DNA from: Amoebophrya sp. A120
Taxonomy: Eukaryota; Protista; Dinoflagellata
Length of the DNA stretch: 64,000 nucleotides
NCBI GenBank assembly: GCA_905178155.1
Contig: CAJINV010000002.1
Span: 146,354-210,353, forward strand
Direction of reading: 5' to 3'
Shown piece after piece: positions 6,740 through 64,000 of this stretch (positions are counted from its first letter, which is position 1; the number at the start of each line of letters is the position of its first letter). Made by a program: the position numbers and the translations under genes. A model generated the notes under the pieces. That model was not told where the DNA came from. It ran no database searches and worked only from the letters and a program-made list of their open reading frames with translations.

Positions 6740-6761
6740 TTAAATATATTTTTACTTTGCC

Positions 6762-8030
6762 CTATAAGTAAAAAAGGCTTGAGGACTTTTCTAATTTGAT
6801 AACGACCTGCCTCTGTCGGCGCAGGCAACAAGGGCAACAATACTCAGTGGCTGCACTGTAACACCCATTGGCTCTGTCCACGCAGGCGGCGCGTCCGGCA
6901 AGACAACATTCTTCGGCGCGACCGCTAACACAACAGGTTAGGACAAGACAACAGACTGCGCCGTCGATACAATTAGACGCGGCAAGTCCCAGGCGTTCCG
7001 CTACGGTGGGGGTGCGGTGGGGTTCCGCTGCTGCTTCAGCTGCAGCCTGAAGCACCTCCCGAAGCATCGGCTGCCGGCACTCGGGGCATGTCGTGGACAT
7101 CGATCTTCCCGTACGAATCCACGTGCTTGCACACCCCTGGTGTGCAAGGTGTGCCCGCTGGTCGCCCTCCTCGTCAGCGCCAGCTCTGCACAATCGTACC
7201 AATGGGCTGTCTCTCTCGCTCTGCGGCTCCTGACAAATGCAACATTCATTACTCGGGGAACTTGCATTTCCGGCTCCGGTAGCTTGTTCAACATCACCCA
7301 GCTGGACAGGCGCCCCCGTCGCACGTGCAAACATCCTGGTTGAAAACGTCCCCACCCCAGAGTTGTCATGAAAAGTCGCATGCTCAGCCTCATGATGTTC
7401 GTTCCTCATGCAAGAACCCTACTGCGCGCCGTCAAGAGGCACTTTCTAGCAAGAGTTTGGGAAAAATCTGTCATGCGGTCGTCAGGAGAATGTAGTGGAT
7501 TCGTGATGCGCATTGACAAGCTAGGCACGACTACAGCTAATACAATACACTTGTCATGCGTGTTGAGCCCCAAGAATGCGGGCCTTGCTTGTCTCGTAAA
7601 GGAGTTCCCGTCTTGATGACTTTGGGGTGCGGACGTTTTTGCACACGATAAAAGGGGTCCTTCCTCTTCTAGAGCAGCAGCCTAATCCTGCTAAAGGGTT
7701 CCATCCTCCAACACTACCGCCGCCGCTAGAAGGTCCAGGTGCTGCAGCTACAGATCCTCCTTCAGCCGCCTCTGTTTCCAGCAAGCGCCTCTCCCGCGAC
7801 CGCCGCCGTGCTGCCCTGAAGCTGGCGTGCCTTTCCGGCCGCCCCGCTGCCCCTCTGTTGCCAGAAAGGGATAGTGCCTGAAGCTGGAGTGCGTGCGCAA
7901 CAGGTGGTCCAACGAGGAGGGACAAAGAAAACCCTGCCGCGAGAGCCATCGCCATCAACGCCCGGCGCACCCGAGCCTGATAGGAACAACGGAGAGAGGA
8001 ACCGGTACGGGACGAGAGCATCATCTTCAT
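6762..8030 (-). CDS. RING-H2-like zinc-finger protein with hydrophobic N-terminal segment and Cys-rich tail (~314 aa, one introner)
   Basis: ORFs 7554-8030 and 6762-7409 join in frame after removing 7332-7650 plus 5 bp; pattern CxxC..C..HxxHxxCxxxW..CPxC. The true C-terminus may be altered by the adjacent retroelement. Confidence 0.7.
7332..7650. mobile_element. Introner family C
   Basis: CATCCTGGTTGAAAACGTCCCCACCCC ... GGGGTGCGGACGTTTTTGCACACGATA; flanks degenerate (GCAAA/AAAGG) but removal plus 5 bp restores the frame. Confidence 0.8.
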
Positions 8031-8501
8031 GATCTTGGGTAGTTGTACGACAGGTAGTATAGAAATAAACTTGTGTCAGGACGAAAGTTAAAGTTTGGCT
8101 TTGGAGGTTTTGTGATGCAAGATGATATTAGAGATGGTTTAGTTGCTCTTGCTACTTAATACGACAATAAAACGAAGTGAACAAGTTGGAGTAGCAAAAG
8201 GTCACTTCTTCTTCTTCTTTTCAAAACGATGATAGATGCTAAAGGTCGTCAACGAGAATCAAATCCTAGGGGGAGTTGTTGCACAGTGTGTGTTTCAGCT
8301 TCTTTGACTTTTTTTGCAATTTTGACTTCTATGAAGGAGAAGTAAATACAACCGGTTTTCCAGTGGCAATATGTTATGCAGTATTATTGTTTCGTTTTCT
8401 CTAGTGGTAGTTGGGCTGCTGTGTGGAGGTGGAAAGCGGAAAAAAATGCACAGTAGAAATTATCTACCGATCATATTGGCCGCGGGCGCGGCCGCACGCT
8501 G

Positions 8502-9586: not shown

Positions 9587-12500
9587 CTACGTGGTGGCAG
9601 CTCCGTTCGTCTCTTCTATCTTCTTCCTCTTTCTGTTCGCGAGCAGGTCCAGAAATGCCTGTGCTGGCTTGTTATGAAATGCAAATATGTCTGGGTCTGG
9701 AAGAGTCGGAGCTTGTCTTGCACATTTTGCATGACCTGTGAGGTCTGTGATGCTGGTGCTAGCATCACAGATTTTTTGAGAGCTTTTTGATGCTAATTTA
9801 TTACGCATGAGAAATGCCCTCTCCTCGTGCCAAAAACTGATGCCTCTTGCTGCTCATGCAACACAGATTTTTTTCGAATCCGCAGACAGCATTACAAGTT
9901 CCAATCTTCCAAACCCAGACACATTTGCAATGCATACTTGTCCCGTGGCTGGGGCGAAGGAGCAGGTTTTTATGGCGTTCTCAACTGTTACATTCTGAAG
10001 TGTTACATGAATTTGTGATGCAAGAATGGCAAAAGTGAAAGGCGTGACCGTCCGCGTCTTGCATGACAGATTTGGCGCACGACATTTTCAGCCTGTTTGG
10101 CATTTCGCGAATTTGTTATGCGAAGCAGCTTGATCGTGTCGGCTCTGATGGTAATTCTGCATGACAAACCATGTAACAGCTGAGAATGTAACATTTGAGA
10201 ACGCCATAGTTTTTGTCTTCGTCGAGATGAAGGAGTGGATGGGATTTCATTTTTATCAAAGAAAAAAAGTTCGTCACGATCACTCATGCGCATTCTTGCA
10301 ATACAAAATTGTTTGTCATGCGTAAAAATGCATCACAGCCAAACTTCATTAGGGATTTCCCTAGTGTTTCTGCAATAGTTTGTGATGCTGAGAAAATTTG
10401 TAAGTTGTAATGCAAAACCTGCAAGTTAGTGACTGTGACAAACTTTTTTCTCTCCATAATTTTCGGCATCAACTACCCCGATAGAAGAAGAAGAGGGACA
10501 AATAATGACGCCAGCACCGCCATTGCGACTCCGCTCCTTCGCCGGTCGTTGTACTGGTTCTTCATCCTGTTTTATTTTTGTTTTTCCTTGTTTAATACAA
10601 GAACTCAGGGAGGACGAGTAGAAATACGGCGACGGGACGAGCTGCTGCTGTTGAGAGATCAGCGTTTGATCTTCTTCTTCCCGTAGGTGTAGTACGTTCT
10701 GGTCGGGTTCGGATTCGTCCTCCTCCTTGTCGGGAGTACTAATAGAACACGGTGGAAAGAACTGTTTCATCCCTTGCACCCTGCGTTGTTCAACATTTCC
10801 TGCTCCCGCTGAAGAATTGTGAGAATGATCTGGAGCATATCGTGTGCAAAAGTATCGTACTCGTATTGCAGTGAAGTGATGCATTACAAATCTTTTTCTT
10901 ATAGGTGAATCTGAATCCGCGCCATTTTCTCATGCTGAGGAAATTTGTAAATGCATTTATACGAGTACGACACTTTTGCAGTGCATAGACCAGAACTACT
11001 CGAGCCTACTTCAGTGGTGGACGTTCGGCTTTTTCCTGCCGCCGGTGCCTCCGCTGTTGTACTAGGGTGCAGCTCTTTATGGTGTTCTCAAACGTTACAT
11101 TCTCAACTGTTACATGAGTCTGTAATGCAAGAATGGCAAAAGCCAAAGGGGGAAGATTGCAAAAATTGCATTACAAATCCCACCCAGATTTAGGTGGTGT
11201 TTAGCTCTTCGCAAATTTGTCATGCGAAGCAGCTTGATCTTGTGGATGATGATGGTAGTTTTGCATGACAAATTCATGTAACAGTTGAGAATGTAACGTT
11301 TGAGAACTCCATACTCTTTATTTTCGACGTCTTCATGTTCATCCGATGCTGCAACTACCGGATCATCTTCCGGATGGGCTTCTTCTTCTTCTTCTCCTCC
11401 ACTCGCATCTTTGACTACGACTGCCTCAACGTCGACGGTCCGATGAGGAAGTAGAGGAGCGCGGCCTTGTTCATCCGTTCTCGCTTTGATAGAAGCGCCT
11501 TTCGCTGCTACAGCATTAGCGTTACGAAACTCCTCTAGGCTGCTCACGTCGGGCAGGGGGACCAGGGGGTGCTTTTTGTTTCGACGTCCCTGATGAATCT
11601 GGGAAATTATTTCCCTGAAATCTGCTTGACTTTCATCTGCTTCGCCTTGACCTGGAGAAGTAGATGAAGAGTGCAAATTTGGATTTTGGTTTTCGTGTTC
11701 CACCGCCGTTTATGCACTGCAAAAGTGTCTGGGTCTGGAAGGTTGGAACTTGTCATGCTAAATCTGAATCACGCAAAAATCTGTGTTGCATGATTATCAA
11801 ATGCTGTCCACTTTTGATCAAGTTGAGAGGCAGTTTCTCGCGCAGGATAGTTATGATAGTGATCTCACGGAATCTGTCATGCTAGGTCCTCCATTACAGA
11901 TCATATGGGTCATGGAAAACCTGCATGACAAGTCGAGCAAAGTTCCACACCCAGACATTTTTGCGTTTGATACCATTCGAGAAGCCAAATCTTTGTCGTG
12001 GAGGTCGTGGCGGTATCCTGTGCAGAAGTATCGTACTAGTACAAATGCTAATGCAAGTCTTGCATTACAAATCTTGTTTCCAAGGCAAATCTGCATTACA
12101 TTCAAATTTTATTTTTTATGCTGAGCAAATTTGTAATGCATTTATACGAGTACGATGCTTTTGCAATGCATAGGCGGCGGCCCTCATCGTCCTCAAAATC
12201 GGAGGACATGTCATCACGAGAATTTCCACCAGAGTTCTGGTCCTCTTCACTGTCGCTCTCAGAGAGGACTACAGAGTGGTCTTCAGCATCGGAGGACCCA
12301 GCTTGTTCGTCCGAGTTAATATTCTTGTTCTCTTCATCACAGGGTGTTGTGGCACAATTGCCCAAAGATCTTCCATGTTGAGAGGACGCAAGAGCAGCTT
12401 GTGCTTGTTTCCCTAGTTGCATTTTTCCCATGCTTACTGCTTTCTTCTTCCGATACTGTACTTCTTCAATGGCTAATTCCTGCAAAATTCGCTGCACTCG

Positions 12501-15500
12501 TCGCTGTTGCTCTAAGTCGTCCTCTTCTTGATTCTCCGCGGTGAGCCAGGTGGTTTTGAGATCTAGCACCTTGAGGACCTTGGTACTACTAGTAGGTGTA
12601 GCAGGAGGGCTCTTCAAAATGATCCTGCTGTCGTCCTCGGTCTCTTTTTCTTGGCGATTCTCTTGATCATCTTTCATGACAACAGAATTCTGTTTTTCAC
12701 CCACATGATAACCCTCGTCTCTATCACTTCCAGCGCTGTATGGAGATTTTTCTTCCACCCCCGCGAGTTCTTCGCAAGCAGCTACCGGTTCTTCGCAAGA
12801 GTCGTCCCCCTGCTGCTGATCCAGTAGTAGTAGTGGACCCCCGCCACAACTTCTGCGGTCGTCATCTCTCGCCACAAGAATCGACGGCGCGACTGTAGTC
12901 GTGGTGGCCGTCGTGGTGTCGTCGTGTGCCTCATGTACTACAGACCCGCCAACAAGTTCTTGCTCGTTATCGCCATTTGCTGGTCCTCGTCTCGTGCTGG
13001 TGCGATTTATTTTATCGCCAGGTAACAGAACTACAGCACCACAACGCCGTCGATGCATCTTCCGCTGTTCTTGCAGGAGCTCAGTTTTCAAAAGCTTTTC
13101 CTCAGCGGCTTTATCTCCCTTCAGCTTGTAGACATCGTTCTGGTCGTCGTGGTCCTCGTAGTGACGACCTCGTACTCCCGCACGCGAAGATGACGAAAAT
13201 ACCCCCGCGGCCGCATGGGCATCAGGGTGCTGGTCAACAAGAAGTATCAACTGTAAAAATGTCTGGGTCTGGAAGAATTCATGTTTGTCATGCGTATCTG
13301 ACATGACTCTTAAATCTGTCATGCACGTTACCCAAGAGCTCCGCTTTTCTGTGATGTAGAAGCGCAGTTTGTCATGCAGAATAGGCAAGAACACCTAGGA
13401 GCTCAGAAACTTGTCATGCTGAGCCAGCATTTATAGCCTCATCATGAGACGCCACCCAGCATCACAAGTTTCCAGACCCAGACATTTTTGCATTTGATAA
13501 GAAAACCCTCGTCTGCCGCGACGGAAGAATTCATCCAAGTGAGTATGACCTGCTCAAACGTTACAATCTCAAACGTTACATATAGAATCTGGAAGTGGAT
13601 CTGTGATGCAAGAAATGCATGATCTAGCTGACTCTCATAGAAGGACTGCGCATGACAAGTTCCGGAGTCGCCCCCAACCGCACTACGATCTGGCGACATT
13701 TGTATTGGAGAAGGTGGAACGGTCTGCGAGTCTGTCATGCTCGTGATGCAAGACAAATGATCCCAGATTCCATTGTAACGTTTGAGATTGTAACACCTGA
13801 GCGGGTTATAGTGAGCATCTTTTTCTTTTTCACCCGTTCCCACAAAATCTCCATCTTCAGTCGCTTCTTGTATTCCTCGGCTGTCATGACAAGCTGCGGG
13901 ATTTTCTTGCTATAATTTCCGATCGACACCTCAAACGAATCGACAATCTGCTTCCGCGCCACACTCGCGACATAAGCCTGCGACTCCTTCTCCGTGGCGC
14001 AGTGCCACTGCTGGGAAAGCCAGTTCAGCATGTTGGCGTATTCTTGGTACAGAGACTTGCTGTATCAAATGCAAAAATGTCGGGGTCTGGAAGGTGACCA
14101 GGTTTGTCATGCATATCTTGCATGGATCACGATATCTGTAAATGCATGATCTAGCATCACATATTTTTAGAGGCCTTCCTGATGCCTATTCCGCATGACA
14201 AATGCCCTCCCCTCGCAGCACAATTTGGGCTCCTATTGCTGGTCATGCAATACAGATCTTTTTAGCATCCAAAGTTAGCATCACAAGTCCCGACCTTCCA
14301 GACCCAGACATTTTTACACTTGATATGCTGAGCGGCTTGAATAAACTCGACTGAGTAGGCGACGTTGTTTCTGTTTTTCGAAGGTCGCAGCTGGTAGTTC
14401 TAGCTTTATACCGCGACCACTTCTCCCGCCAGTGCTGCCACCTCCGCTCCAACGCTGCTCTGCGATCGGTTAGAGGGAGCTTCAGAAGCGCAAAAATTTC
14501 TTTTCCCGTGCAGAAGAGCGGGTGGCCGGGGCGTGTAGTAGTTCTGCTAGAACTACTAGAAGTAGTAGTGTCGTGGTACATAGAAACCGTCTGCTCTTCT
14601 TTCTTCTCCAAAGCCGGGCTTTCCTGAAAAAAATCTCGCCCTCGTAGAAGCTCCTGTGTACTATGGCGTAGTCGTCTCGCACCCTCTCCAGCGCCCAGCT
14701 GACGTTCTGGTTCAATCTCCTCGTCAGAATAGCACGGCGAGCCACGATCACCTCCAAACCTCTCAATCAGTTTCCGCCGCAGGTAGTCTTGTCGGTTCTC
14801 GAAATATGGTAATTTTGTGCTATCATTCTTACTCCTGTTAACATCATTCCTCGTTTTCCGCTCCTCCTCGACAAAGTGCAGGGAAAAGGCCGCGTTTTCG
14901 ACATCGAATACCTGTGGCGGGAACGGCGTAGGGAGGTGGAGGATCAATTGTTGCAGCACCTGCTCGGGCGAAGCGAGGTCGGGGTGGGGCAGCCGCAGGT
15001 GGAGGTTCATCATCTCTCGGGGATCCGGTCTGGTGCTCTTTCCGTAGGAGCTGTTAGCAATACGCGCATGACGTGGTCTACTTGGCGGATCATCTTCACG
15101 TGGAGGTCCTCTTTGCTGCAATATCAAATGCAACTATGTCTGGGTCTGGAACTTTGCTAGACTTGTCATGCAGGTTTTCCATGACCCATATGATCTATAA
15201 TGGAGGACCTAGCATGACAGATTCCGTGAGATCACTATCATGCCTTTCCTGCATGAGAAAGTGCCTCTCAACTTGATCAAAAGTAGCCAGCATTTGCAAA
15301 TCATGCAACACAGATTTTTGCATGATTCAGATTTAGCATGACAAGTTCCAACCTTCCAGACCCAGACACTTTTGCGATCCATATGCAAAAATTCTTGGTC
15401 GTCCGCGGCGTCGTCGTCGTCTTCTTCAGAGGAGACATTGCTGTCGGTTCGGTCTTCGGAGTCACTGCAGTATTGAACTCGGCGGAGTTCATCATCTTGG

Positions 15501-18500
15501 CGCTTTTCAACATCCGCATGGAGGTCTACTTGGGGTTCTTTTCCATCTTGCTGTTCTATTTTCACCAAGGTCGTCGTGGCAGAAATTCGTGCTGGTGTTC
15601 CTCCAAACGGATCATACACTTTCTGCTCCGCTCTCTTCTCGACCAAATCCTATGCATTGCAAAAGTATCGTACTAGTAGTAATCGCATTACAAATTAGCT
15701 CCGCATGACAAAATGGAATTTGTAATGCTGTTTTACCTTGAGATAAAAATTTGTATTGCATTACTGCGATTACTACGAGTACGATACTTTTGCACAGGAT
15801 AAATCCGCATCTTCAACAAATTCCTCAAACAAAAACATTTCCGCAAAACCTTCCACCATTCTCTCGACCTGCTGCCGATCCCGCATGCGACGGTAAAAGT
15901 TGAAGCGGGTAAAAGGGTCTGTTCCTGCTGATTTATCATTTCCCCGACTGATACCTTGGCGAAGAAGGCTCAGCGGGTTATTTTCTTTTTCGACGAAAAT
16001 TGGTTCTTGTTCCGCGGAAAGCATTTTTTTCTGCTTTTCCCTGATTTCTCGGGTAGATCGATAGGCGAGATTGGAGATGTACAGCTTCATATCCAAGAAA
16101 AAAACTGTGTTAGTGTAACTTTCCTTGGGTGACAACATTTGCTCTACATGACAAAAAAAACCTGTCATGTGTGGTTTGTAAGGGAAAACACGCATGAAAA
16201 GAGGACTTGATGGCTGTCTGGCATGACAGACGTGCCTCTGTTGCATGTTCTGCATTACAGAGTTACACTTACACAGTTTTTTTGTTGCATACTTCACAGC
16301 CTTCCAAACTCTCCGCTTCAAGTGCTTGCAATTGATTATCCTGTGAAAAAGTATCGTGATCGTAGTAATTGCAATCATGCATTTACAAATCTTTTTCTTA
16401 AGGTAAATCCGCATTACAAATTTTATTTCTCATGCTAAGAAAATTTGTAATACATTTATACGAGGAGGATACTTTTGCATTTGATATTGATCTGATCCAG
16501 ACACTTGAGTCGCCCTGTTTTATTGTTTGGCGACGGTGGTTTTGGTTTTCGTTTTCGACGTTTTCTCGACAGTTGTTTTTTGTTCCGAAGGGGTTTTTTC
16601 TTTCGTGCTGCTTTCGACATCCTGTTCGCTTTTTTGTTCGCCTTCTTCTTTTCCTTGCTTTGCCGCTCTTGTTGTGATGCTTTGTTGCGTTTCTCCCTGC
16701 GATCAGATGAAGTAGTGGTGGTTTTGGCAAAAGACCTGAGTAACCTGGCTGCGCAAGCCGAGCCACGAGTTGATGAGAACAAGTGCTTCCGCAACAAAAC
16801 CGCCTGCTGCGCGTGACAGTCGATCGTTTTAATCCGGCCTGCATGCTTGGCCAGCCGCGTCGCGTACTTTGAACCGGGCGGGGCAATGCAGCTGATCAAA
16901 CTGAGCCCGGCCCTCCGTCGATTCGCGATGGAGAGTCCCGCGGGCGTGCAGATTCGCGGAAGAAAGATTCGGGAGCAGCCGAAGAAAAGGTGGACGATGG
17001 TGCGGAAATCCAGCGCGGCTGATCTTCGTGTCGTCGCAATCTTCCCGTGGGTGGAGGAAGAAGAAGAGTTCTTTGCACGACCTTCAACTTCTTCATCTTC
17101 AACGTCGAGCCGGGAGTGTGTATCCGTATCCTTCTCTTTCTCGTGGTTCCCAACATCTTCTTTTCTTCTCCTTTGCCTCCTCGTCGGCGCCCACGCCCTG
17201 CTGTCATCTTCTTATCAACCGCAAAAATGTAAATGTCTGGGTCTGGAAGATTGCCATGTTTGTCATGCAGATGTTCTATGGCTCATAAGGTTTAGAATGC
17301 AGCTCCTAGCATGACAAATTCTGTGAGATCTCTATCATGCCTTACCTGAATGAGAAACTCCCTCTCAACTTGATAAAAAAAGACGGCTGTTGGTAATCAC
17401 GCAACACAGATTTTTTGCATGATTCAGATTTAGCATGACGAGTTGCAACCTTGTAGACATCCAGGGATATTTGCATTTCATAAATCTAGCATGTGTTCGA
17501 TTTTCTCGGAGAACCCCGTGTATTCGAAAATGTCGACCCTTTTCGGTTCGAAGTCATCCGGCAAAAGTTTTATCCCACGAAAAAACTGTTTCACTGTGAT
17601 GATTTTGCAAGATCTGCATCACAAGTTTGTTACACATGACACAGAAAATTTGCCATGCGCCCTTCCAAAGGGAAAACACCCCTAAAGAGTCAAGGTCTTG
17701 CAGGTGTAGCAAGACAAATAGTTCTGTGCTCCATTCTATGCATCACAAGTTCACAGTGAAACACCAGTTTTTTCTTGCGATAAGCTTCTCCTTCAAGTGA
17801 ATCCGACTTTGAAGAAACTCGAGCTCTTGCAGCAGGAAGAAAGCCACGTCCTCATCACTTCGGTCAAACTGCGTATTTTGCAAGATATCCCGCCTTTTCA
17901 GCTTCAGCTTGTCAATTTGCCGGCGCAGCCTGCAAGTTTCGGGCGCGAGTTTGTAGAGTTTCCTCGTGACCGCTTGCAGTTGCTTTTCGCAAAGGTCCTG
18001 ACACTGCTTGATTTGTCGGCGCAGTGAGAGTATGGAATGTAAAAATGTCTGGGTCTGGAAGAATGGAACTTGTCATGCTGTTTTTGGACTCTAACAAAAT
18101 TTGTATTGCATGACCAGCAAGGGGGGTACAGTTTTTCTTTTTACTACACGGACAGGGCGCTTTTCATGCGGAAGGTGCATCAGGAAGCCCTCTAAAAGTC
18201 TGCGATGCTAGGTCATGCATTACAGGCATCATGGGTCATGAAAAATATGCATGACAAATCTTGCATTCTTCCCGACCCAGACATTTTTGCATTTGATAGA
18301 AAGGGGGAGGCCGATTTTCCGGTTCCTCTGGGTTTTTTTCTTGAGGCAGGACAGCAATACATTGCGGCCGTGCGCTGGTGGTACTTCTTCCTCCCTTTGC
18401 ACCTTGTCTAATTCCCTTTTCCAATCGGTCTTGATCTTTTTGCACATTTTCTTCCTCCACTTTTCGGTTACTTTATCCAATGCCGCTTGAATGGCTTGTA

Positions 18501-42056: not shown

Positions 42057-42188
42057 ACCTAAGATTCGGTCTCATACACAAATTATACACACAACTCCCC
42101 GCAACACATAATTTGAAACTAAACCACACGAGGTACGACCACCAAACTAAAAATGTCTGTGTGCTCGTGCTGCTCGAGCGCGACTTCA

Positions 42189-52200: not shown

Positions 52201-55200
52201 GACATCGTTTGGTACTCATGCAACACAGATTTTGGCATGATACAGACTGAGCATGACAAGTTGCAACATCCTTCGTCCAGACCCAGATATATTTGCACGG
52301 CATAGGAGCTTCAACAGCGAGTCGTACTCCTTCGCCTTCCTCGCTTTGTCCTCGATGAGAGTTTCGAGCTGCAGCATTTTCCGGATCCCTTTTTCCATTT
52401 TCTCCGTGAAAATCTTCTCGGCGTTTTTCACATCCACTCATCCTCAGGAAAAACGTCACCACCCCAGAGGTGTCATGCCAATATGCATGCTTCAAATGTT
52501 TTTCATGCGGAGCCCCATGAGAAGCATTTTCTAGTGGTGTTTTGGAATTTGTGATGCACGAATCAGCATGATAGGGTAGATCTGTGATGCTGCTTCACTA
52601 GCTAAACAGGATTACAGTAGAAGGCCAAACTTGTCATGCGAAACAGCCACAGCTGGTTGATTTGTGTAGCAGATTCCCCATGGTGACTCTGGGGTGGGGA
52701 TGTTTTTACACAGGATACCACTTTCATCTGGTTCAGTTCCTGTTTCAACAATTGGCACTGCTCTGTGGTAAAAGCCAGCATCGCTTCCCGCTTTTTCCTG
52801 CTGAAGACGCCGGTTTGAAAATCAACTCTTTCCTCCAATTTCACCACGTGCTGCTTGTGCTGATCGAGCAAAAAAGTCGCACGGTCTAGGCTGTGTTGCA
52901 AGTTGTAATGGTCCTCTTCTTTCTTCATCAACTGCTGCCGCAACTCATCCTGTGCAAACGTATCGCACTCGTAGTAATTATCGCAGTCATGCATTACAAA
53001 TCTCCATCCCAAGGCGAAACAGCATGACAAATTCCATTTGTCATGCTGAGCTAATTTGTAATTTGTATTGCAATTACTACTAGTACGATAGATATTTTTG
53101 CAGTGCATACAACTCGTGGTTTTCCAACCGGATGTCGTCCGCTATATTCCCCGATTCCCGTTTTGACTTCTCGTTGATCAATTTCGAATGTGAATTGCAA
53201 AAGTATCGTACCCATAGTGATTGCAGTCATGCACTACAAATCTCTCTCTTAAGGTAAAGCCGCATTACAGATTTTATTTCTCATGCGGAGAAAATTTGTA
53301 TTGCAATTACTACTAGTACGTTACTTTTGCAGTGCATATCGAATGCGTCAAAACCTTCTCGTAATTCAGCTTCTGCGCATCCAGCATCGTGTCTGCTTCG
53401 TAGCTATCAAATGCAAATATGTCTGGGTTTGGAAAGGTTGAACCTGTATTGCGTGTCTTGCATTCGTGAAAAATCTGTGTTGCGCATAAGCAGCAAAAGT
53501 GCCACTCTATCGTGATGAAACATCGCAGTTTGTAATGCGCACTACGCATTAGAAAGCGTTCGAGAGATTTGTCATGCGTCGCTGCACTTAAAAGCGCACT
53601 CAATCATGACCATTCAGCATCACAGGGTTCCAGACCCAGACATATTTGCAATGCATAGTAGCGGTGCTTGTTCTCGATCTGCTCGACTTTTCGCGTGTGC
53701 TCCTTCCGCTCGTCGTTGATGATGGTCCGGAGTTTTTCCAGCAGTAAGTAGGATTCTTTCAGCCGCTTGAAAACGGAGTCGTTCTCGCTTTCTAAGCGCT
53801 TATTTTCTTCAAACAGCTCCTGTTTCTTCTGGTCGGAGTGCTGTAGTTTCTGCCGAAACAAGTCCGCTTCCTCTTCTTTCTCGTTGACTTTTTTCACGAG
53901 TTTGTTCCGCTCCTCCGCGTTTTTGAAGGAGAGAAACTGCATCTGTTGCTGTAAGTCCGCTTCGTTGGACCTCGCCTGCTCCAAAAGTTTTACCTCCTGG
54001 TTTTGCTGGTCCTGAAAAATTATGAACTGCAAAAGTATCGTACTAGTATAGATGGCATGACAAATTTCCTCAGCATGACAAATGCAATTTGTCATGCTGA
54101 TTTGCCTTGGGGACGATATTTGTAATGCAAGCATGACTGCAATTACTACAAGTACGATACTTATACTTTTGCACAGGATAAAAATCTGTTTCTTCAAGTC
54201 GTTAATTTCGTCTTTCTGCTCCTGTTTCCGTTTTTCCTCTTTATGCATTGCAAAAGTATCGCACTAGAACTACTAGATGAAATCGCATGACAGACCTTAG
54301 CACTACAAATGAAATTTATTATGCAGATTTACCCTTACGAAACAAGATTTGCAATGCATGATTGCAGTATAGTACGAGTACGATACTTTTGCAAAAATGC
54401 GTACTCTTCTTCCTTCCCTAACTCCTTCTGCTCCAAAACTTGACGGTACTTGGTGCGCAGCTTGTGACACTGATAAAGGATTCTGATTCAGTTTCGTCAA
54501 TGCAGAAAAACCTATCACAAAAGGACTTTGTCATGCATAAAATCACATCACGAAAGAAAAGGCTAAACCACGGCACCGCGATATTAAACCGAATAAAGCT
54601 GCAAAAACTATACCTTCGCCTTGTAATTTCCCACGTCGTTCTCGTACCGCTCTGACAGGGCATCAATCTTCTCCCCCAGCACCGCGTACTGCCGTCTCAT
54701 CGTCTGTCGTTCCTGTTCACTCTCTTGCAGCGCGTTTCGGAGCATCGCAATTTCCCTTGCATGATTGGTATGATTCATGCTGTTGATGTTCCTGGTCGAG
54801 GAGCTTGCTGTTGATGTGTGGGGGTTATTTCTGTTATTCCGGCTTCCTCGGTGTAAACGGAGAAGCTCGGCCGCGGTATTAGGCGAGGTTGACCCACCAC
54901 CGACAGGGTAGTTTTTGCCGTTCTGATATGATCCTGCATTTGTTCTGCTCCCAACAGCCCCACCAGTACTCGCATCCAGCATTCCAAATTTCGTTCGCAA
55001 CCGGTCCAAATTCGTCGTATCGAGGGAAGGCGCAGTAGTACTTGTGGCGAACAACAAATTTTGGCCAGTTCCTTCTCGAGCTCCGCTCCTGTTCTGCATG
55101 ACAGATTTGGAGCTGGTGTGATCCGGTTTGTGTTTACTCTGTCTTGCTGAGGAGGAGGAAGAAGAAGCGGAAGTTCCGACCACCAGTGTCGGAATCACGG

Positions 55201-55714
55201 TGGTCGGAGGCTGTGCTGCGCCGATACTGGATCCTGGGAGTGGTTGATGTATTTCATCGTCATCTTCTCCCACTGGTAGTACACCTGCAGATGAAGAAGA
55301 TGATGATGGTGCTATAATGCCGGCACCCGTGACCGGCACCACAGGTTGCCCGATTACTACGTCCGCTTCGTCCAGCTCTATGCCGCGGCGACCAGGTTCT
55401 TGCGTCATAATTTTTACACCTCCAGCTCTAGCACTCCTCCCGCTGCTGTTGTAGTCCGTCGTCTGCGCCAGCACTGGTATAAGACCAGGGGCGGTGGGCG
55501 GGGAAATCGCCTGCTCTGTTTCTGGAACTGGTCCCCGTCCCGTAGCTCCCACAGCTGCAGGCTGGCCTTGTTCACCTGCTCTGCTGGAGTCCCGTTTGCT
55601 AGCGGAATGATCTGCAACAGAAGCTTGGATGGCTGCAGATTCGGCTGCAGTTTCAGCGTCTCCGCCGACAACATCGCCTGTGCTGACGAAGCCGCTTTTG
55701 ATGTCCGATTCCAT
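46251..55714 (-). CDS. Large coiled-coil protein (~1,674 aa) with low-complexity termini; 19 introners plus one GT-AG intron
   Basis: All junctions translate stop-free; spliced length 5,025 nt = 1,675 codons; E/K/Q/L-rich heptad-like central region; ATG 55714 is preceded by an in-frame stop. Confidence 0.85.
47146..47320. mobile_element. Introner family A
   Basis: DR GGTTT/GGTTT; frame restored. Confidence 0.88.
47390..47641. mobile_element. Introner family B
   Basis: DR CTTCC/CTTCC; frame restored. Confidence 0.9.
47720..47872. mobile_element. Introner family A
   Basis: DR TTTTT/TTTTT; frame restored. Confidence 0.9.
48454..48711. mobile_element. Introner family B
   Basis: DR ACCCC/ACCCC; frame restored. 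Confidence 0.9.
48828..48977. mobile_element. Introner family A
   Basis: DR GTATG/GTATG; frame restored. Confidence 0.9.
49014..49340. mobile_element. Introner family E
   Basis: DR TCTGA/TCTGA; frame restored. Confidence 0.9.
49539..49798. mobile_element. Introner family D
   Basis: DR GCTTG/GCTTG; frame restored. Confidence 0.9.
49843..50033. mobile_element. Introner family A with internal inverted duplication
   Basis: DR GTCCT/GTCCT; extra palindrome TGCATGATTGTAATACGAGTGCGATGCTT-T-AAGCATCGCACTCGTATTACAATCATGCA; frame restored. Confidence 0.88.
50295..50581. mobile_element. Introner family C
   Basis: DR TCGCA/TCACA; frame restored. Confidence 0.9.
51017..51164. mobile_element. Introner family A
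   Basis: DR GCGGC/GCGGC; frame restored. Confidence 0.9.
51266..51548. mobile_element. Introner family C
   Basis: Left end TGT variant, DR CGTGG/CGTGC; frame restored. Confidence 0.85.
51591..51865. mobile_element. Introner family B
   Basis: DR TTCGT/TTCGT; frame restored. Confidence 0.9.
52032..52304. mobile_element. Introner family B
   Basis: Degenerate DR GAGGT/GGAGC; removal plus 5 bp restores the frame. Confidence 0.85.
52439..52717. mobile_element. Introner family C
   Basis: Left end CAT variant, DR CCACT/CCACT; frame restored. Confidence 0.88.
52946..53109. mobile_element. Introner family A
   Basis: Left end CAT variant, DR CAACT/CAACT; frame restored. Confidence 0.88.
53189..53338. 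mobile_element. Introner family A
   Basis: Left end TGT variant, DR TCGAA/TCGAA; frame restored. Confidence 0.88.
53405..53657. mobile_element. Introner family B
   Basis: DR GTAGC/GTAGC; frame restored. Confidence 0.9.
54021..54180. mobile_element. Introner family A
   Basis: DR AAAAT/AAAAT; in frame and stop-free if retained. Confidence 0.9.
54242..54403. mobile_element. Introner family A
   Basis: Right end GTA variant, DR CTCTT/CTCTT; frame restored. Confidence 0.88.
54470..54613 (-). other. Canonical GT-AG intron (144 nt)
   Basis: AAG^GTATAG ... TTTATCAG^TGT on the minus strand joins NYKAK to CHKLRTKYRQ in frame; no TIR or DR. Confidence 0.7.
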
Positions 55715-58700
55715 GCTGGCGGAAAGCCGTTTTAGCTTCCACCTTTGCGGCGGAGCAAACCCTGCTTATTTGCAAAGTGTCTGACTCTGATGTTGCATGG
55801 GCATGCGAATAAAAGATGTCAATGCAGGAGAGAGTGCTGCACTTGTTGACGTCACCACACGTGTACGAAAATTCGCTTGACAAAACATTGTCTTTATTAT
55901 TCCAAAAAAGCTCTGCTACTTGACTATCTCTCACACTCAAACACTCTGCATTCCTCTTCACTTTCATGAAACCATATATGTTTCTAATGTGTAGCACTGG
56001 TATGTGACTCCAACTCCATTTCTGAGCGCCACTCCCTCCCCGCTCTACCACTCGCTGTCGAAATCACAATCAGCCAGGAGTCAACACTGCCGTCAGGGAT
56101 CAAGGAAAAGCACTGATTTGCAGAGCCTCCAACGTGCGGAGGAAGAGTTTCCACCGCATGGTCACGCCATGGCAATAAGTACTTCTTTTAACAACTACAA
56201 ACGCCGGCCCCAACAGGCAGACAACACAGACACCGCCCGGGCGCTGTTGTGCCGCTTGATAACTAAGACTGGCAGCGGCACGACCGATGGGGACACGCGG
56301 CGCGCACACATGTAAGAATGCCGGCGCGCGCCAGTCAGCTGAGCTCGCTAGCCAAGCCTGTCTGGAGCGGCGGCTCGCTGTGGCCTGCGCGGAGCGTAAG
56401 TAAAGTTTTAGAGACGCGCCGGGCATGGGGGCGGCGAGCAGGCACTTTCAGGGCCCGGCCCGGCGGGGCCTGCGTCGGTGACGGCGAGCACCTTGCGGGG
56501 CGGGGCGCGCGCCTGGAAGGCCAGGAAGCGGCTGGCGCGACGGCTGCCCGGATGGGCGGCGCGCACAATAAAAGGCGCGGCCGCGTCGGGGCCCCCAGCG
56601 GGTGCCCCAGGGGGCAGAGCTCCTTCCCATACAGGGCGCCGGCTCCCGCGTTTTCGAGCATTTTAATGAAGTACTTTTGCGCGACATCTTCGCCGACGAA
56701 TCGCCGTCCGGCTCGGGCGTATTGACCTGCAGGCCCCAAAAGCAGCAGGCCGTCTCCGTGTGCTGCTGCGCTGCCGTTGTTCTGGACGCAACCTGGCGGA
56801 GTAGCGACCGGCGGCCATTTTGTCATTATCGCCGCCCGTCAGCTCCACCACTACGCCCCTGAGCGTCGCCACGACAACCCGGAACCTAGAGCTGCGCCCC
56901 GCCAAAAAGCATGCAGCCCAAGACGTCGCGAGGAAGCTGCGAACAAGAAAATGATGCACCCATCACACGCCATCAAGTTTCCCAATCGGTGTGCCTTTCT
57001 CTCCATGAACTTTTTGGTAGCTCCCTCACACAGTCAAATACTCTCCGGCGCTCGCCATCACCAGCCAGTTCCAGACATGGTTCTCCTGTCAGAGTGACTC
57101 TATTGAACACTCGTTCCTCGCCTTAAAATGAAAGTCCCCTCCTCGTCCTCCCTCTTTGTCATCACTACGCTCCCCTCCTAGGATCACAGAAAAGGCCAAC
57201 ATCAACAACCGTTCGAACAACCGTTCAATAAGTAGCTCTCCAACCTCCAAGCTGTGGCTGGCTGTGGGGTCAGAGAGGCAGTTCCACCGTCTGCTGTGTG
57301 ATCTCATGAAATGTTTGCTCGACAGCGCGCGTTCCCTCTCGCCGCGCATTTTTTTCGATGCGGTTTTCGTGGCGGGCGCGAGACGACCGCGTCACCAAGA
57401 CTAACGGCAACGCACCCGGCGCGCCACCGCGCGCAAACACGCAATAAACTGCGCGGCAAGAATTACTTACGCCGGGCGGCGACTTGCCCGCCGCCGCTCT
57501 TCAGTAGCGCTTCCAAAAGAAGCAAGACCTGCGCGCCAGGTCGTGGGGCCATACTGATTGCCACTGCCCGCGCGGCCCCGAATATGTGGGGCGCAACGCG
57601 TTCCAGGGCCCAGCTAGGGCATACCCGGCGGCGCGGGCGGCGGGGAGCGAACCCGAAAGGCCTGCAAAACATGGGCCGGGGAAAACAAAGCGCGACGACG
57701 GGACACGTGAACGGGCGACGAGTCTAGGTCCACCGGTGTTATTCTGTATAGGGTTCTGCTGAATGGTAAAAGCAGGGACGCGGCCGCGCGCGTCGGTCTG
57801 TAGCGGGCGGCGAGCGGCGTGATTTCCATGCTCTTGGTCTCTCTGAATCGGCATCAAACGCACGGCACTTGATGCGCGAGGCCGACCACATCCAGGGCAT
57901 TGATGTGCTACTGCTCGTATTGGCGCCACGCCTACGCCCGCCGCGCGCAAGTCGCTCGGCCGCGCCACAACACTGCCACCACAACACGAAGCGACGCGAT
58001 GCACCGCGCGCGCCTCTCACATCACCCTGCTCTGTCGCTGCGGAACAAGGGAGAAAGACATCACACGATAATTCTCCTCACATGTCTTCGCAGCAAAGAA
58101 ACACTCAACCCAAAACGCCCTCTGTGCTCCGCCATCTTGCGCATGTGGTTTCTCCTGTATAAAAGTTGCGCGACTCTATTAACAACTCCCTCTCCACCTC
58201 GTCATCGTCCCTCCGTGTCACCCTCCACGGCCCCGGAACAGGATCAAAGAAAGGAAAGCCATAACCACCAGCGGAACAGAAACAGACCTCAAGTAGATCT
58301 CAAGCTGCTCTAAGCTGCGAGGGTGCCACAGTCCCAGCTTCTGCTCTCTACTTGTCAAGTCAAATATCATTTCAACAACAAGTGTTCGTTTTTAGCAGAC
58401 ATTTCTAGTTCGTCTTGTCGTGAAACGCATTTTGGGATGAAAAGGTTATAGGTTTTTGTAGCGACATGCGAATGATGCGTTTGCGCCGTGGCCATGCGAG
58501 GACCTCGAAAAGTAGTTGTACTGGCGGCCGTGTCATTTACAACACCTGTGGATGGTGTTTTGTAAATCTTACAACCGTGTTTGCCGTCTTCATTCGTATA
58601 CACTACGCGTTTGCTGTTTATTTTCGGTCGTGTCGTAAAAAGTTGTAAGGGTGAAACGTTTCTCGGTCTTGTGCAAAAAAAGCCAATACCATTATTTAGG

Positions 58701-58921
58701 AATTTGGTACTCTTGCACGTTGCCCTAGGCTGCGGATTACATACACGACGGTAGTGGCTTATCTTGACAATTCGACTTGCCAGGAAACACGAATGTTGTG
58801 ACTGCCCGGCTCACCTTTCTTGTCAAGAAAGTGCCTCTTTGGAAAAGTGCAATTTCTGCAAAATTACGGATTCATCTGCCATTGTGCTGTACTGTCGTTG
58901 TTGATGGTTACTTCGGCAGAT

Positions 58922-58975
58922 AAGAAATCGCTGCTACGCTAGGTCGCAAGAAATCGCTGCTACGCTAGGTCGCAA
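58922..58975. repeat. 26-bp tandem duplication
   Basis: AAGAAATCGCTGCTACGCTAGGTCGC twice. Confidence 0.9.
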
Positions 58976-61516
58976 AAGATTTAAACACATCTGTAGCATT
59001 GTTCCGCAGCGGAGGTCAACAGAGGTGGCACTGAAGAACCCCACGACTGAGGCAACTGATTAAACCAGACACGTTAACAGAAGTCAACGTACTTTGGTGG
59101 TATCAACAAATCGAGGAATAATTTCCTTGCAAATAGATTTTTTTGATTCTTCAAATATAATGGGATACAAGAAGGCTTTTCGTCTTTAGTATTTTCGTCT
59201 GTCGTTCGTCGAACTTCGAATCTTTTTGATAGAAAGCTATAAGTGTAGTACAGCGGTAAAAAAAACATTATGGTTGCACAACGTACTAGATTTTTCATAC
59301 CACCGGCTTCGATGAACATGAAAATGCACGTAGAGTGGTTGTACACCATTCTGAGACCGCTAGTCCAACATTTCTTCCTCAACACCATCGTCGCAAAATT
59401 TCATAAGAGCCTTTATCTTCTGAGATGGATGTGCTGGAGTGGACATCATAGTAGCGAAATAAGTACAGGTGGACATTTTATTTTGTATTCGACACAGGAA
59501 ATGCAAATGGCGTGAAGTCATAGATTGGACAGCAACGTCTTCAGAAGGGTAAACTTCCTCGAAGAGCCGCTTTTCGTCGCGATCCGAATCCAGAAATTTC
59601 TCTGGAAACAAATCAAATGTAATATTGGGTCTCGTTTAGTACTATAAGAAAGTTGAAAAAGCGCTTAAGACGAGCACCAATGACCACCTTGCGCCCCGTT
59701 TTTGAATTTTTTTCCCTAACTTGGATTTTCGAGCTAGGGCAGACACGGTCAGAAACAGCAAAGTAGTTTCCACTAGGTCGTGCGATTGGAAGAAAAAATC
59801 AGGTACCAGCTATTATTCGCGTACTAGTCGATATAGATACAGCTCATGCTTTTGCGGGATAAGGTTTCTTGCTGCAGGCCTCGTAAAAACAAGTGCCCAC
59901 GCAAAACTATAAAAGCTATAAAGGACCAGAAAAAGTGGGCTTGTTCTTTTTGTGTTTTTTCGAGTTTTTTTTCCTTCTCGGCGATAAGCTTGGTCGCTTC
60001 AGTTTTTAAGCAGACCCGATTACAACATAAAAGAGGAGATGACCACCAGTACCAAACGATAAATAGAAGTTTGGCCGCTTTGGCGCATCTTGGTGTTGGT
60101 CCGGCAGCTGCTGTAATGCCTGCAGCTGTTGGTACTGCATTAGCATCAGATAGTAAACTTGAGATCGTCTACGTAAGTTCGATCGACGAGATATTAGAAG
60201 CGAACTTTGAAAAAATTTCCAGGGAGGTAAAACTAAAAGACTAAAAAGATGAAGAAACTACAATTATGCTGCACCACAAACAGATTGAATACGGACAGTC
60301 GTGAGAGACCGACCTACAACTAACACGACCCGATAAATGGTAGTGTGCGGCCCCGACTTATGTTGACGCAATGATGTCCCGGGCTCGATCTTTTGTCGTT
60401 TCTTGATCTAGTTTCTAGTACCATTTATCTAGTTGAAGAAAGAGCTGCGTTCTTTCAGCTGTGCAAGGCTCAAGCAAGACGCCTCGCCATTCCCAACTAT
60501 TTGCAAGGCCGGGATGTAAGTGCTAGGCACGACAAGAGCAACGAAAATTTAGAGGACACAAAAGACTTTTTGTGTAATCGATTGCCTTTTGTGTCGTGCT
60601 TCTCTAAGCGCGTTCTCGCTCGCAGCTAGTAGCAGTAGTATTACCCAACAAGAAAACGGTTGCTGATATTCCATTTCATTTCAAGAGAGAACTTGTCGTG
60701 CGTATATTCGTTTTTGCGGCGCTTTTAGGTGAAAAAGCAGATCATCTTAAGCCAAGGAAAACACGATCTAAAAATAGAATTTTTTGACGCACACGATCTA
60801 AAAGCAAAACTCAAAAAAGATTTAGCTACCAGCTTCTTCGTTTTGCTTTAGTTCATATGCAAAATTGATGTATTTCTATTAAGCCGATTTGCTCCGTTCA
60901 AGAGAACCTGCAATTCCTTCGTGTATATAATTCTAGGAACCTGTTTCGATCTTCTCCTGGCAGAAGCTTTTTTTTCTATTTCTTGCTTTTGCTAGGTCGT
61001 GCGGCGAAGTGGTACCTTGACAGTCAAGAAAGCCCTCAGTAGCCTTTATATATAAAAAAGAAAAACTTCTCGAACCTTTTGTGCTCTTTTAGGTCGAGAA
61101 AAGGTGGAGCGTGCCAATTTCCGAAAAATGAGGAACTGACGCAACTACGGGCGGAAAGCGAGAAAGAAATTGGTCTGACAGCGAAAGCGGTGAGCAGCGA
61201 CATGCTCACCTACATTGCTGCGCAGTTCTTCGCGCACCTTAGAGGTAGAAATTCTGCAGCCATCATTGACTTTGACGTGATAAGTCAATTAAAACCTAAA
61301 TACAAAGAGGGACGCTCACGCTGACAACAAATTTAGCAACTTATCACTTCGGTGTTGAAAGCAATAGCAAGAAGTCACAGGATATAATCTACCACATATC
61401 GTGTGAAATTCACTAAAACACGATAGAGTACTAGGTAAAAATGAAGACGCTCTTGAAGATTAAGATAGAGCTTTATTTTTCGAAAAAATTTTCGGCTTAT
61501 TTCATTAACCTGAAGA

Positions 61517-64000
61517 TCAGTTTCGATTTAAATTTTGCGCGGCTTCACCGCTAGCCCTACTCGCAGCCCCACCGCCGCTGTTGTTGGAACTTCGATGGTT
61601 GTCTTGTTCATTCGGGCCCGACGCGTTGGTAGAGGAAGAAGAGCTACTACTGCTACTACTCGCCGTACTTTCCTTCGCAAACCGTTCTTGCGCTTTCTGC
61701 ACCTGTGCCATCTGCTCCTCTAATCTTCTATCTCGCGCCAACACCCGCGGCTCTACCCGGAGATTGGGAAAACGTGGATAGGCTGGTGCTTGGGCGTAAT
61801 TGTTTCGTTGGTCGTTGATCATGTCGTTGAAAGAATTTGAATTGATGCCCGAAGACGACGCCGTCGATGAAGAGCCAGCGGGCTGCACTCGGGTGGTCGT
61901 GCTTGTCATGATGGAACAATTGGGCGGCCCGTTACAGTTACCTCTATTGCGACCTCCCCTGAACGGGGGAATTTCCGGTAAGTTTGTTCCGTATTTCGCA
62001 TGCAAGATTGCTGCCTGACTCAGAGGACCAGCACTAGCTGAGGACGAATTCTGTCGCGGTTCTTGCGGTCTTGATCTTTGTGTTTCTGAGGAGGTGCTGT
62101 TGTTTCCATTTTTACTGCAGTTATTTGTAGTTCCTGCTGTTTGTAGTTGACCAGCAACAGAAGTACAAGTAGAGGAGGAAGATGAAGCTGCTCCTGCTGC
62201 AGCGTTTCTGCTGTTTCCTGTTGAAGGGCCTCCAACAACCCCAGGGGATGAGAGAACTACTGCAGGGGCGTTCGCGTTGTTCGCCAGCACGACGTTACTA
62301 GCATTCGGATTCGCCGGTCGCGGCGGCTGCGCCATAGAACTCCCCGCCGGGAGAGCTGTTGCGGCCGTAGGAGCTCCCCGTGTCGTTGTACTACCCGCCG
62401 GTCGTGTAGTAGGCGCCGCAGTTGTAGTAGAGATCATCGGCCGGGGGTACACAGATGAGGGTAAAGCACCACTGTTGCTTATCCTGAGTAAAAACGTACC
62501 CACACCAGAGTCAAGATGGGGACTTTGCAACAGAAGCCTAGAACTTTTGGGGGTCACGCATCACAAATTGCAGTCCGTAGTGTAGTGCAGGTTCGCAAGG
62601 CCAGCTGCATCAGAAATCGATCTGCTCATCCTGTTTACAGCATTACAAATTCCAAAACACGACTAAAAATGCCTCTCCTGGCGATGCGCATTACAAATGT
62701 TCCTGTCATTGCAAATCTGCATGACAACTCTGGTGTGGGTAGGTTTTTGCTCAGGATATTGCTCGACGTAACAGGACCACGAGTAACAACACCCGTGTTA
62801 CAACTTCCCGTCAACGAGGAAAGGCTAGTACTTCCTGGGGGGCCGAAGATACTGGTGTTCGGGAAAGTGGTCTTGCTCAAGGGAGCAAAGATGTTGCAGC
62901 TCACGGGAGCAGGAGCCGCGGCGGCAGTGCCAGCGCCGGTTGATGTCGACGTCCTGGAAGTAGCAGTAGACGCAGCTGCTGCTGCAGTAACAGAAGTTGT
63001 ACCGAGATTATTGGCCGGCCTTCTACTTACGTTCCGCGAACAAGAAGTCCTATTCGACGGCGACCGGGCGGGAGACCGGTCCAGGGCAGACCCCGGGGCG
63101 TAATTCGGGCTGTCGAAATAGGTGGCGAGCTTTTGCGAGGGAGGCTGGGGGGCTTGAACTTGGGGCCCGGAGGCGGAGGCGGTGGTCCTGGTGTCAACAA
63201 CAACAGGATTTGTGGCAATATTGTTGTTCGCTGTTGCCGTGGATGTGCTGGAAGAAGGTGCGGGGGCCACGACGGCTGCTGCTTCATCTGTAGTGGGTGG
63301 TCGTGCAGGATGGGGAACAGTAGTGTCGTGCCCACCTTCGTCATTCGGGGCTGTTTCAGTGGTGTTCGAGCTCGTCGCTGTATTTGCGCTTGCCTCGTTC
63401 ATCGCGGTAGAGGGAGCGGAAGCTGTCTGTCGTGATGCTGTACTATTCGAGTCAACTAGTACATTTGTGGCATCATCATCTACCTTCGCAGCAGAAGACG
63501 CTGCAGGACCTCCTGCAGCACTAGCTGTCGCGACGTCAGCACAACTTCTTGCCCCGGTTTTGGCCTCAGTTGTGGAGGACGTGATCGCGTCTGGTTGAGA
63601 AGTTCTAACCGAAAATGGTCCAGCACTATTCACGCCCGGGGGAGGAGTATCAAATGTAAAAATGTCTGGGTCTGGAAGATTCTGAGATTTGTCATGCATG
63701 TTTTGCATGACCCAGGATGTCTGTAATGCACGGCCGCGCATCACAGATTTTGAGAGGGCTTCCTGATGCCTACTCCGCATGGCAAACGCCCTCCCCGCGT
63801 AGCACAAACTAGACTCCTCTTGCTGGTAATGCAATACAGATTTTTCTAGAGTCCAAAGTTACCATCACAAGTTCCAATCTTCCAGACCCAGACACTTTTA
63901 CATTTGATAAGGAGCCGCACTGAACAACTCTCTCGTAGAAATCGTCGTGTCTATGTTCATATGCATTGCAAAAGTATCGTATTCGTATAAATGCATTACA
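61517..64000 (-). CDS. 3' part of an Ala/Ser/Thr/Pro-rich low-complexity protein (continues beyond the window)
   Basis: ORFs 62635-63834 and 61517-62557 join in frame after introner removal (VTSS^NSGAL); stop TGA at 61517. Confidence 0.8.
62480..62758. mobile_element. Introner family C
   Basis: DR TTGCT/TTGCT; frame restored. Confidence 0.92.
63648..63909. mobile_element. Introner family B
   Basis: DR AGGAG/AGGAG; frame compatible. Confidence 0.9.
63960..64000. mobile_element. Introner family A, left part only (cut by window edge)
   Basis: TATGCATTGCAAAAGTATCGTATTCGTATAAATGCATTACA. Confidence 0.85.

Follow-up and report, generated by a model that had tools for sequence, protein, structure and literature searches.

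Previous analyses of the dinoflagellate Amoebophrya sp. A120 have described introner elements whose terminal repeats begin with TAT, followed by seven looser bases and at least three A, and which are flanked by direct repeats of 3-5 nt (Farhat 2021, PMC7789003; statements on published work refer here and below to the portions of each source available to us). A 5-bp direct repeat is the example in the legend of Fig. S19 of that paper, in which 65% of 66,565 RNA-supported A120 introns are non-canonical. Among the small nuclear RNAs (snRNAs) of A120, U1 was not detected and U2, U4, U5 and U6 are kept, as are 83 of 89 spliceosomal proteins; the minor spliceosome was reported absent and, in the available portions, no transposase was found (PMC7789003). 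In addition, 58 A120 introner families with tens of such introns per gene have been reported, including one family with inverted repeats and an integrase-related open reading frame (ORF) (Gozashti et al. 2025, PMC12130899), and an adapted spliceosome has already been suggested for Amoebophrya in a review that, as far as available, names neither a cut register nor a branch site (PMC11282704). Both the elements with their repeats and the fact that they are removed have thus already been published. Here, we analyzed a 64,000-nt stretch of A120 DNA (contig CAJINV010000002.1, positions 146,354 to 210,353; hereafter the window) whose genes are interrupted by such elements, and we describe a cut register and two invariant bases that make the mode of excision directly testable.

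Two proteins encoded in the window, P0001 (host gene 3) and P0003 (host gene 2), were 100% and 99% identical, respectively, to public proteins named Amoebophrya sp. A120, and thus the link to Amoebophrya is one of identity, not analogy. On this evidence the window inserts are the known introner elements of A120; the original prediction, made from the letters of the window, had cited the introner elements of Amoebophrya bounded by inverted and direct repeats, and the protein matches now place both in the same organism. As in the published elements, direct repeats of 3-5 nt, splicing without GT-AG and repeated families in the A120 genome were found, the direct read-level evidence for non-GT-AG splicing being one fully displayed junction. 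Our overall reading, which we regard as evenly balanced between right and wrong, is that A120 introners, non-coding inverted-repeat transposon copies in coding exons, would be removed by a modified spliceosome with a lariat at the A seven bases from the 3' end of the intron (A-7) and with cuts one base before and four bases after the element (1+4).

A paired-end scan for TAT...ATA termini, followed by a library scan allowing changed termini, gave 70 complete elements spanning 7332-63909, after boundaries had been corrected for two of them (47146-47320 and 54242-54403). This independent scan returned the predicted counts of inserts, of terminal inverted repeats and of perfect 5-nt direct repeats (49, with another 14 matching at 4/5, 3 at 3/5, 3 at 2/5 and 1 at 1/5). 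TAT...ATA ends had been claimed for all 70 elements; they are exact in 61 and inexact in the remaining nine. The census itself was incomplete, since two further elements had been missed (3649-6801 and 46072-46275). The mean identity of the direct repeats was 0.91 at 5 nt but reached only 0.23-0.36 when any other length between 2 and 10 was taken, and perfect repeats occurred in at most 2/70 elements at lengths 3, 4 and 6-10 and in 10/70 at length 2. Because perfection peaks at 5 nt only, this length is not a matter of chance.

Inverted repeats of 8-20 nt or more were present at both intron ends. At most of the first 28 arm positions 44-68 of the 70 elements were paired, with weaker pairing at positions 4, 5 and 7, and A was found at arm positions 11-13 in 57-67 of 70 ends, in agreement with the published pattern of TAT, seven looser bases and at least three A; family D and two small families deviate from it. 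The arms were frequently mismatched at positions 4-7 (for example, C at one end and G at the other), so that an internal loop separates a long stem from a terminal stem of 3 bp, and a few end types were common to several families. Copies occurred in both orientations within genes, were up to 95% identical to one another and shared an internal 8-nt motif (70/70 elements; 11.8 per kb inside vs 0.43 per kb outside). Terminal inverted repeats, a target duplication of fixed length, insertion in either orientation and the lack of coding capacity are all traits of miniature inverted-repeat transposable elements (MITEs), and the ends, the constant length of the duplication and the internal motif common to all copies lead us to infer transposition.

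When each element was removed together with 5 nt, the minus strand formed stop-free ORFs of 6521 codons (48 junctions), 1313 codons (19), 643 codons (2) and 329 codons (1), and only 2/70 elements could be retained in frame and without a stop. The claim that this removal restores the frame at every junction stood insofar as all 70 lie in stop-free ORFs, and at the 22 junctions with a single open frame on each side the frame was restored in 22/22. However, frame tests length modulo 3 only and was rejected as proof of exactly 5: removing 2 or 8 extra nt still left 64-70 junctions in long ORFs. The length itself was given by other evidence. P0001 and P0003 were annotated on the basis of aligned transcripts, and each of their 20 junctions accepts +5 alone among the lengths from -4 to +11; the 2 extra introns fit as well. 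A contig of RNA type skips the same length:

18026..18298, minus strand: stretch skipped in an RNA-type contig (run X6) joining 18299 to 18025, with both pieces displayed; 273 nt = element 18031-18298 (268 nt) + 5

Runs X5 and X6 are one sample, and their RNA label was guessed by the tool. Moreover, a homolog from Amoebophrya sp. AT5.2, a strain reported with canonical introns (PMC7789003), aligned best to host gene 1 when the removed length was +5 (247 bits, vs 225 for +2 and 216 for +8) and was ungapped across the junctions at residues 1285, 1517, 1529, 1606 and 1629. Removal therefore comprises the element plus exactly 5 nt, as had been predicted, and does not need GT-AG. As regards the dinucleotides, the earlier wording of a pathway not based on GT-AG is correct; a spliceosome is still possible, because the fixed bases described below sit where the donor U and the branch A would be.

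Where the direct repeat is perfect the position of the junction is ambiguous, and where it has decayed the junction can be placed without ambiguity. Three junctions were discriminating:

7327..7655, minus strand: junction of element 7332-7650, whose repeat copies differ at positions 1, 2, 4 and 5; P0001 fits only 1+4
46276..46068, minus strand: intron of the extra old element 46072-46275, with decayed arms and a 1/5 direct repeat; 1+4 is the only solution fitting P0003
17208..17487, minus strand: junction of element 17213-17482, whose repeat copies differ at positions 4 and 5; a contig piece (run X6) ends at 17208 without mismatch, the join being inferred and the other 63 letters not displayed

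The junctions at 18031, 17571, 52032 and 32661 allow 0, 1 or 2 bases before the element and are all compatible with 1+4; of the 21 decayed repeats in the set of 70 elements, the remaining 15 contributed no register information. Stop codons were tried as a register test and were uninformative in 21 window junctions and 17 junctions of other loci. In the published intron table, which is affected by aligner bias, T occupies +2 in each of the nine commonest non-canonical classes of A120 and in each of the nine commonest of A25 (PMC7789003). A cut register fixed at 1+4 is probable in our judgement, and the intron would take the form N-UAU...AUA-NNNN, as supported by the few discriminating cases above.

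Within the window, arm position 1 was changed only at the RNA 3' end and position 3 only at the 5' end. To this we added a follow-up set from a pattern scan of metagenome contigs (at least 152 stretches, 150 loci; with a cut-off of 1.5 kb, 70 loci shorter than 1 kb were excluded), which provided at least 290 end pairs, at least 250 of them unique, with perfect 5-nt repeats in 184/250. No locus orthologous to the window was present among the 150 loci. Of 234 pairs with a repeat match of at least 3/5, 97 were oriented by ORF and 103 by codon score (which agreed with the ORF calls in 82/83 at the margin used), 34 were left unoriented and one boundary mis-call was removed, so that 199 oriented elements joined the 72 of the window (n = 271). 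In the 199 outside elements, changes at the 5' vs the 3' end numbered 0:6 at position 1 and 6:0 at position 3 (Fisher p 0.002); in all 271, they numbered 0:11 at position 1, 1:5 at position 2 and 8:0 at position 3 (Fisher p 1.3e-5). Under the 1+4 register, U was found at +2 in 271/271 and A at -7 in 271/271, and +3 was A in 270 and G in 1. As a sequence pattern, therefore, U+2 and A-7 are invariant on the transcribed strand, while the mirror positions of the opposite arm vary. Since the two biases run in opposite ways, mutational strand bias does not explain them, and a constraint tied to the transcribed strand argues for a process at the RNA level and against DNA excision. Given this register, the elements also show the U at +2 and the purine at +3 of U2-type introns. 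In Yarrowia, Candida guilliermondii and Trichomonas, a constant 2-4 nt separate the branch A from the AG, so that the branch lies at -6 to -8 (PMC2483917), a range that includes A-7.

In the process that we propose, the elements would spread by means of a DDE or integrase-type transposase, which was not seen in the window. Integrase-type enzymes make duplications of 4-6 bp. In the transcript, the paired arms would fold the intron so that both ends meet, replacing U1 snRNA and the search for a 3' site; two elements that we folded formed hairpins with z-scores of -8.6 and -6.2. The spliceosome core would then read U+2, together with the A or G that follows it, as it reads a GU donor, here without the G; A-7 would act as the branch nucleophile, and the 3' site would be set by a fixed distance, not by AG. 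In its broader form, the proposal is of an A120 spliceosome that needs neither G+1, AG nor U1, accepts any paired transposon ends, reads U+2 and branch A-7 and measures the 3' site, so that tens of thousands of copies would be exact introns whatever their target site or orientation; this may hold, although we place it slightly short of an even balance.

Several observations weigh against this reading. Spliceosomes normally need G+1 and AG, and in the 271 elements G at +1 was present in 82 (84 at the last exon base), a terminal AG in 19 and both in 7. There was no sign of a U2-pairing motif around A-7 in this set, arm positions 4-16 being alike at the 5' and 3' ends. An excess of G-U over A-C arm mismatches was considered as a sign of RNA pairing and rejected, the two being equally frequent on the transcribed strand (51:52, 79:66 and 107:104), and coding-strand folds were lower in 42/69 (p 0.09); from these two results, strand-specific selection on an RNA stem was not seen. 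Neither lariat, circle nor factor dependence was observed in the data analyzed, and a sequence-specific nuclease could give the same asymmetry. No transposase was found in the window, and none is reported in the available account of A120 (PMC7789003). Finally, the register comes from a small sample, two of the three junctions belonging to one annotation and the third to a single contig of depth 4. Separately, a U12-type reading of N-TATCC was tried and rejected, as there was no excess of C at position 4 of the 5' ends (158 vs 142) and the minor spliceosome was reported absent (PMC7789003).

The main alternative retains the same elements and the same 1+4 cut but assigns the cutting at fixed offsets to a protein that recognizes the paired ends, with a ligase such as RTCB joining the exons, a route proposed for the introns of Euglena and demonstrated, in imprecise form, for SOS splicing. 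This is possible, if on the doubtful side: no G+1 or AG preference was found, the geometry resembles the Euglena code N3-CAG...CTG-N5 with strict spacers (PMC12501133), inverted-repeat pairing alone can trigger RTCB-dependent excision in SOS splicing (PMC12779559), and U1 snRNA went undetected in A120 (PMC7789003). However, an invariant U+2 and near-3' A whose pairing partners vary point to the reading of single bases at spliceosome-like positions, and the precise junctions of the window differ from the imprecise ones of SOS splicing (PMC12779559); nor is there a purine rule at the next exon base (152/271 purine). The A at -7 and the strong folding would also suit RNA that removes itself in a ribozyme-like manner, with or without a helper protein, and domain VI of group II introns likewise has its branch A near the 3' end. 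We consider self-removal very improbable, because at least nine families of 145-330 nt have no alignable interiors, interiors of 2 kb (satellite) and 3 kb (bearing a reverse transcriptase-like ORF) are tolerated, and no Rfam match was found in the window.

Excision from DNA in the transcribing stage, as of the internal eliminated sequences of ciliates, likewise merits little credence. The ends do resemble transposon ends and the RNA label of runs X5 and X6 is only a guess, but end conservation follows the transcribed strand, which a symmetric DNA excisase would not cause, exon contigs of run X1 (depth 41-48) extend ~27 nt into the flanking elements (a minor excised form being possible, as the joint table was swamped by repeats), and 66,565 A120 introns are supported by RNA-seq (PMC7789003). 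That the ordinary spliceosome uses nearby cryptic GT/GC-AG sites is extremely improbable. A frame-preserving GT/GC...AG pair does lie within 20 nt of 61/70 elements, but the annotated proteins fit only the +5 junction, and sliding within the repeat reaches a GT-AG intron of the same length in 3/70 (31280, 38138 and 41548). For 25891, boundary sliding gave no GT...AG, which confirms the example chosen in the original prediction. Neither the annotated proteins fitted nor the displayed contig junction, which is non-canonical (18031), used nearby GT-AG sites instead of the TAT/ATA boundaries, and at the 23 junctions that protein or contig data cover, this explanation is already refuted for the most part.

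Raw RNA reads of run X7, which carries the same species label, matched element ends at 17393-17444 and 31829 at 90-99% and continued into other flanks; no exon of the window was covered and no read matched at 99% or more. These reads perhaps come from another strain with related elements, or from introns retained elsewhere.

One of the two added elements differs from the others in size and content:

3649..6801, minus strand: extra element of 3153 nt, bounded by TAT...ATA, its arms ~60 nt long and its 5-nt direct repeat perfect; last intron of the gene for the 321-amino-acid (aa) protein, with a P0001 fit of 3158 = 3153 + 5
5393..6739, minus strand: reverse transcriptase (RT)-like ORF of 449 codons inside this element, beginning 62 nt inside the arm

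The ORF had ESM Atlas neighbours at 0.94-0.97, some of whose clusters contained RVT_1 (16-17% of members) and HTH_animal (14-63%), and no match in Pfam, NCBIfam, PHROGs, PDB sequences, plasmids or viral contigs; its single-sequence structure model (pLDDT, the predicted local distance difference test, 37) was useless. It likely encodes a reverse transcriptase, which judging by its motifs is probably Penelope-like. The whole is likely a retroelement nested in an introner, the alternative being an RT-bearing autonomous unit. A 94-nt inverted repeat lies at 3886-3979 within it, and no relative was found in the metagenome loci fetched. No cognate transposase was found in the window, the 3153-nt element carrying an RT-like ORF instead. 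Among the metagenome loci, six longer copies of common families had internal insertions and intact repeats (L024:632-1465, L048:571-1051, L049:3862-4492, L066:2317-2820, L070:5024-5995 and L028:4314-4770); none of the six contained a transposase-sized ORF, the longest stop-free frame being 137 codons.

Four host genes carry the elements:

9590..42071, minus strand: host gene 1, a 6521-codon stop-free ORF once 48 elements are removed (12679 of 32482 nt)
46015..55714, minus strand: host gene 2, encoding P0003 (1684 aa, largely coiled-coil-looking), with 20 elements and one GT-AG intron (54613-54470)
3586..8030, minus strand: host gene 3, encoding P0001 (321 aa), with a Cys/His-rich stretch that is RING-like by eye and has no Pfam match, and two element introns
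61520..63999, minus strand: 3' part of host gene 4, with 643 codons in the window and 2 elements; a further element starts at 63960 and runs off the window

The N-terminal part of gene 1 is homologous to P0004 (1200 aa) of Amoebophrya sp. AT5.2, the match being confined to the first ~1630 of the more than 6500 residues that gene 1 would encode, and the exons scanned had no Pfam match. No full-length public protein of gene 1 was retrieved by a protein search over 647-2000 aa and a homology search that gave one homolog. Gene 1 may have its first exon in the ORF at 42192-43169. The canonical GT-AG intron of gene 2 (54470-54613) starts with G-TAT-AG, the same N-TAT start as in the introners, and has no A at -7.

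BLAST clustering joined 22, 24, 7, 5 and 2 copies, and the rest were placed by end sequence; the resulting families agree with those predicted (A 24, B 24, C 8, D 6 and five small groups):

10838..54403, minus strand: family A, ~150 nt, 24 copies (10838-10987, 12014-12172, 15651-15801, 16337-16486, 20884-21045, 25891-26036, 27985-28143, 29252-29413, 30231-30375, 31280-31429, 33816-33976, 34337-34491, 38138-38286, 38405-40441, 41299-41446, 47146-47320, 47720-47872, 48828-48977, 49843-50033, 51017-51164, 52946-53109, 53189-53338, 54021-54180, 54242-54403)
9673..63909, minus strand: family B, ~260 nt, 24 copies (9673-9936, 11711-11972, 13245-13499, 14063-14325, 15122-15383, 17213-17482, 18031-18298, 21085-21351, 26086-26341, 29899-30171, 30495-30768, 30974-31237, 31829-32090, 32167-32425, 32944-33203, 33416-33676, 37687-37951, 41548-41805, 47390-47641, 48454-48711, 51591-51865, 52032-52304, 53405-53657, 63648-63909)
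7332..62758, minus strand: family C, ~280 nt, 8 copies, 7 by BLAST and 7332 by its ends (7332-7650, 19757-20035, 27485-27778, 37351-37630, 50295-50581, 51266-51548, 52439-52717, 62480-62758)
9971..49798, minus strand: family D, ~240 nt, 6 copies, 5 by BLAST and 13544 by its ends (9971-10208, 11078-11313, 13544-13810, 32661-32903, 34634-34875, 49539-49798)
10254..49340, minus strand: small families, namely the pairs 22781-22999 and 31456-31676, 19377-19685 and 49014-49340, and 16090-16291 and 17571-17782, and the singles 10254-10458 and 40492-40796

Short tandem repeats and a 92-bp satellite of high GC content (38886-40075) lie inside the family A element 38405-40441, whose removal with 5 nt still restored the frame. 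Positions 119-440 are an 88% identical copy of part of gene 1 (12176-12488) that carries different inserts: a truncated family A element begins at 440, where gene 1 holds a single copy of the 5-mer, and the end of another family lies at 118, ~3 nt from the position of a family A element in gene 1. This difference suggests a recent gain, a hot spot or the replacement of one element by another. The segments 715-1056 and 8503-8837 are non-coding, 86% identical and each located just 3' of gene 1-like sequence.

If a lariat is formed, the A120 introners would represent a spliceosome working without its two hallmark dinucleotides; if not, this would point to precise non-spliceosomal mRNA splicing akin to that of Euglena. 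In addition, the 1+4 rule lets annotators place introner junctions without ambiguity.

Compared with the published A120 introners (PMC7789003, PMC12130899), the window elements are alike in TAT plus 7 nt and an A-run, short direct repeats, non-canonical junctions, a length of ~240 nt and tens of copies per gene. The published repeats are 3-5 nt long, with splice positions variable (1-5 nt from the repeats) and, in the available text, no named branch point (PMC7789003), and among 22 of the 58 A120 rows of Dataset file 8 of PMC12130899 duplication calls range from 2 to 5 or are NA, whereas in the window the repeat is 5 nt throughout, the cut apparently always falls at 1+4 and the strand constrains two bases. 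We found no statement of a fixed 1+4 cut, strand-bound invariant bases or a branch site in the available portions of the literature searched, including PMC12005148 and bioRxiv 2025.08.15.670264 and 2020.10.14.339549; Roy et al. (2023, Curr Biol), Henriet et al. (2019), the figures of Farhat and the bioRxiv supplements lie outside this scope and may bear on the point.

The nonconventional introns of Euglena (PMC12501133, PMC11282704) are also MITE-like, with paired ends, flanking repeats and fixed spacers between junction and triplet, the 3' spacer being the longer. However, the triplets there are CAG and CTG with spacers of 3 and 5 (CAG at +4 to +6, CTG at -8 to -6, and a purine at the start of the next exon), whereas those of the window are TAT and ATA with spacers of 1 and 4, no purine rule applies, and it is individual bases that are invariant, their pairing partners being free to vary. 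SOS splicing likewise removes inverted-repeat DNA transposons from mRNA without GT-AG, its substrates needing RTCB, AKAP17A and CAAP1, but it is imprecise and leaves indels (PMC12779559), whereas the window junctions are exact (20/20 annotated junctions, contigs and annotation being such as would hide minor imprecise products). U2 introns with a fixed branch-to-AG distance in Yarrowia, Trichomonas and Giardia resemble the window elements in that a conserved A lies at a constant distance, 6-8 nt, from the 3' junction; those introns keep GT, AG and a strong branch motif (PMC2483917), and the window elements keep none of the three. The introns of Fritillaria borealis, which are of MITE origin, mostly non-GT-AG and attributed to an altered U2 spliceosome (PMC11282704; bioRxiv 2025.08.15.670264), prefer AG-AC and AG-AT ends, whereas in the window the base at +1 and the last four bases are free and come from the target site.

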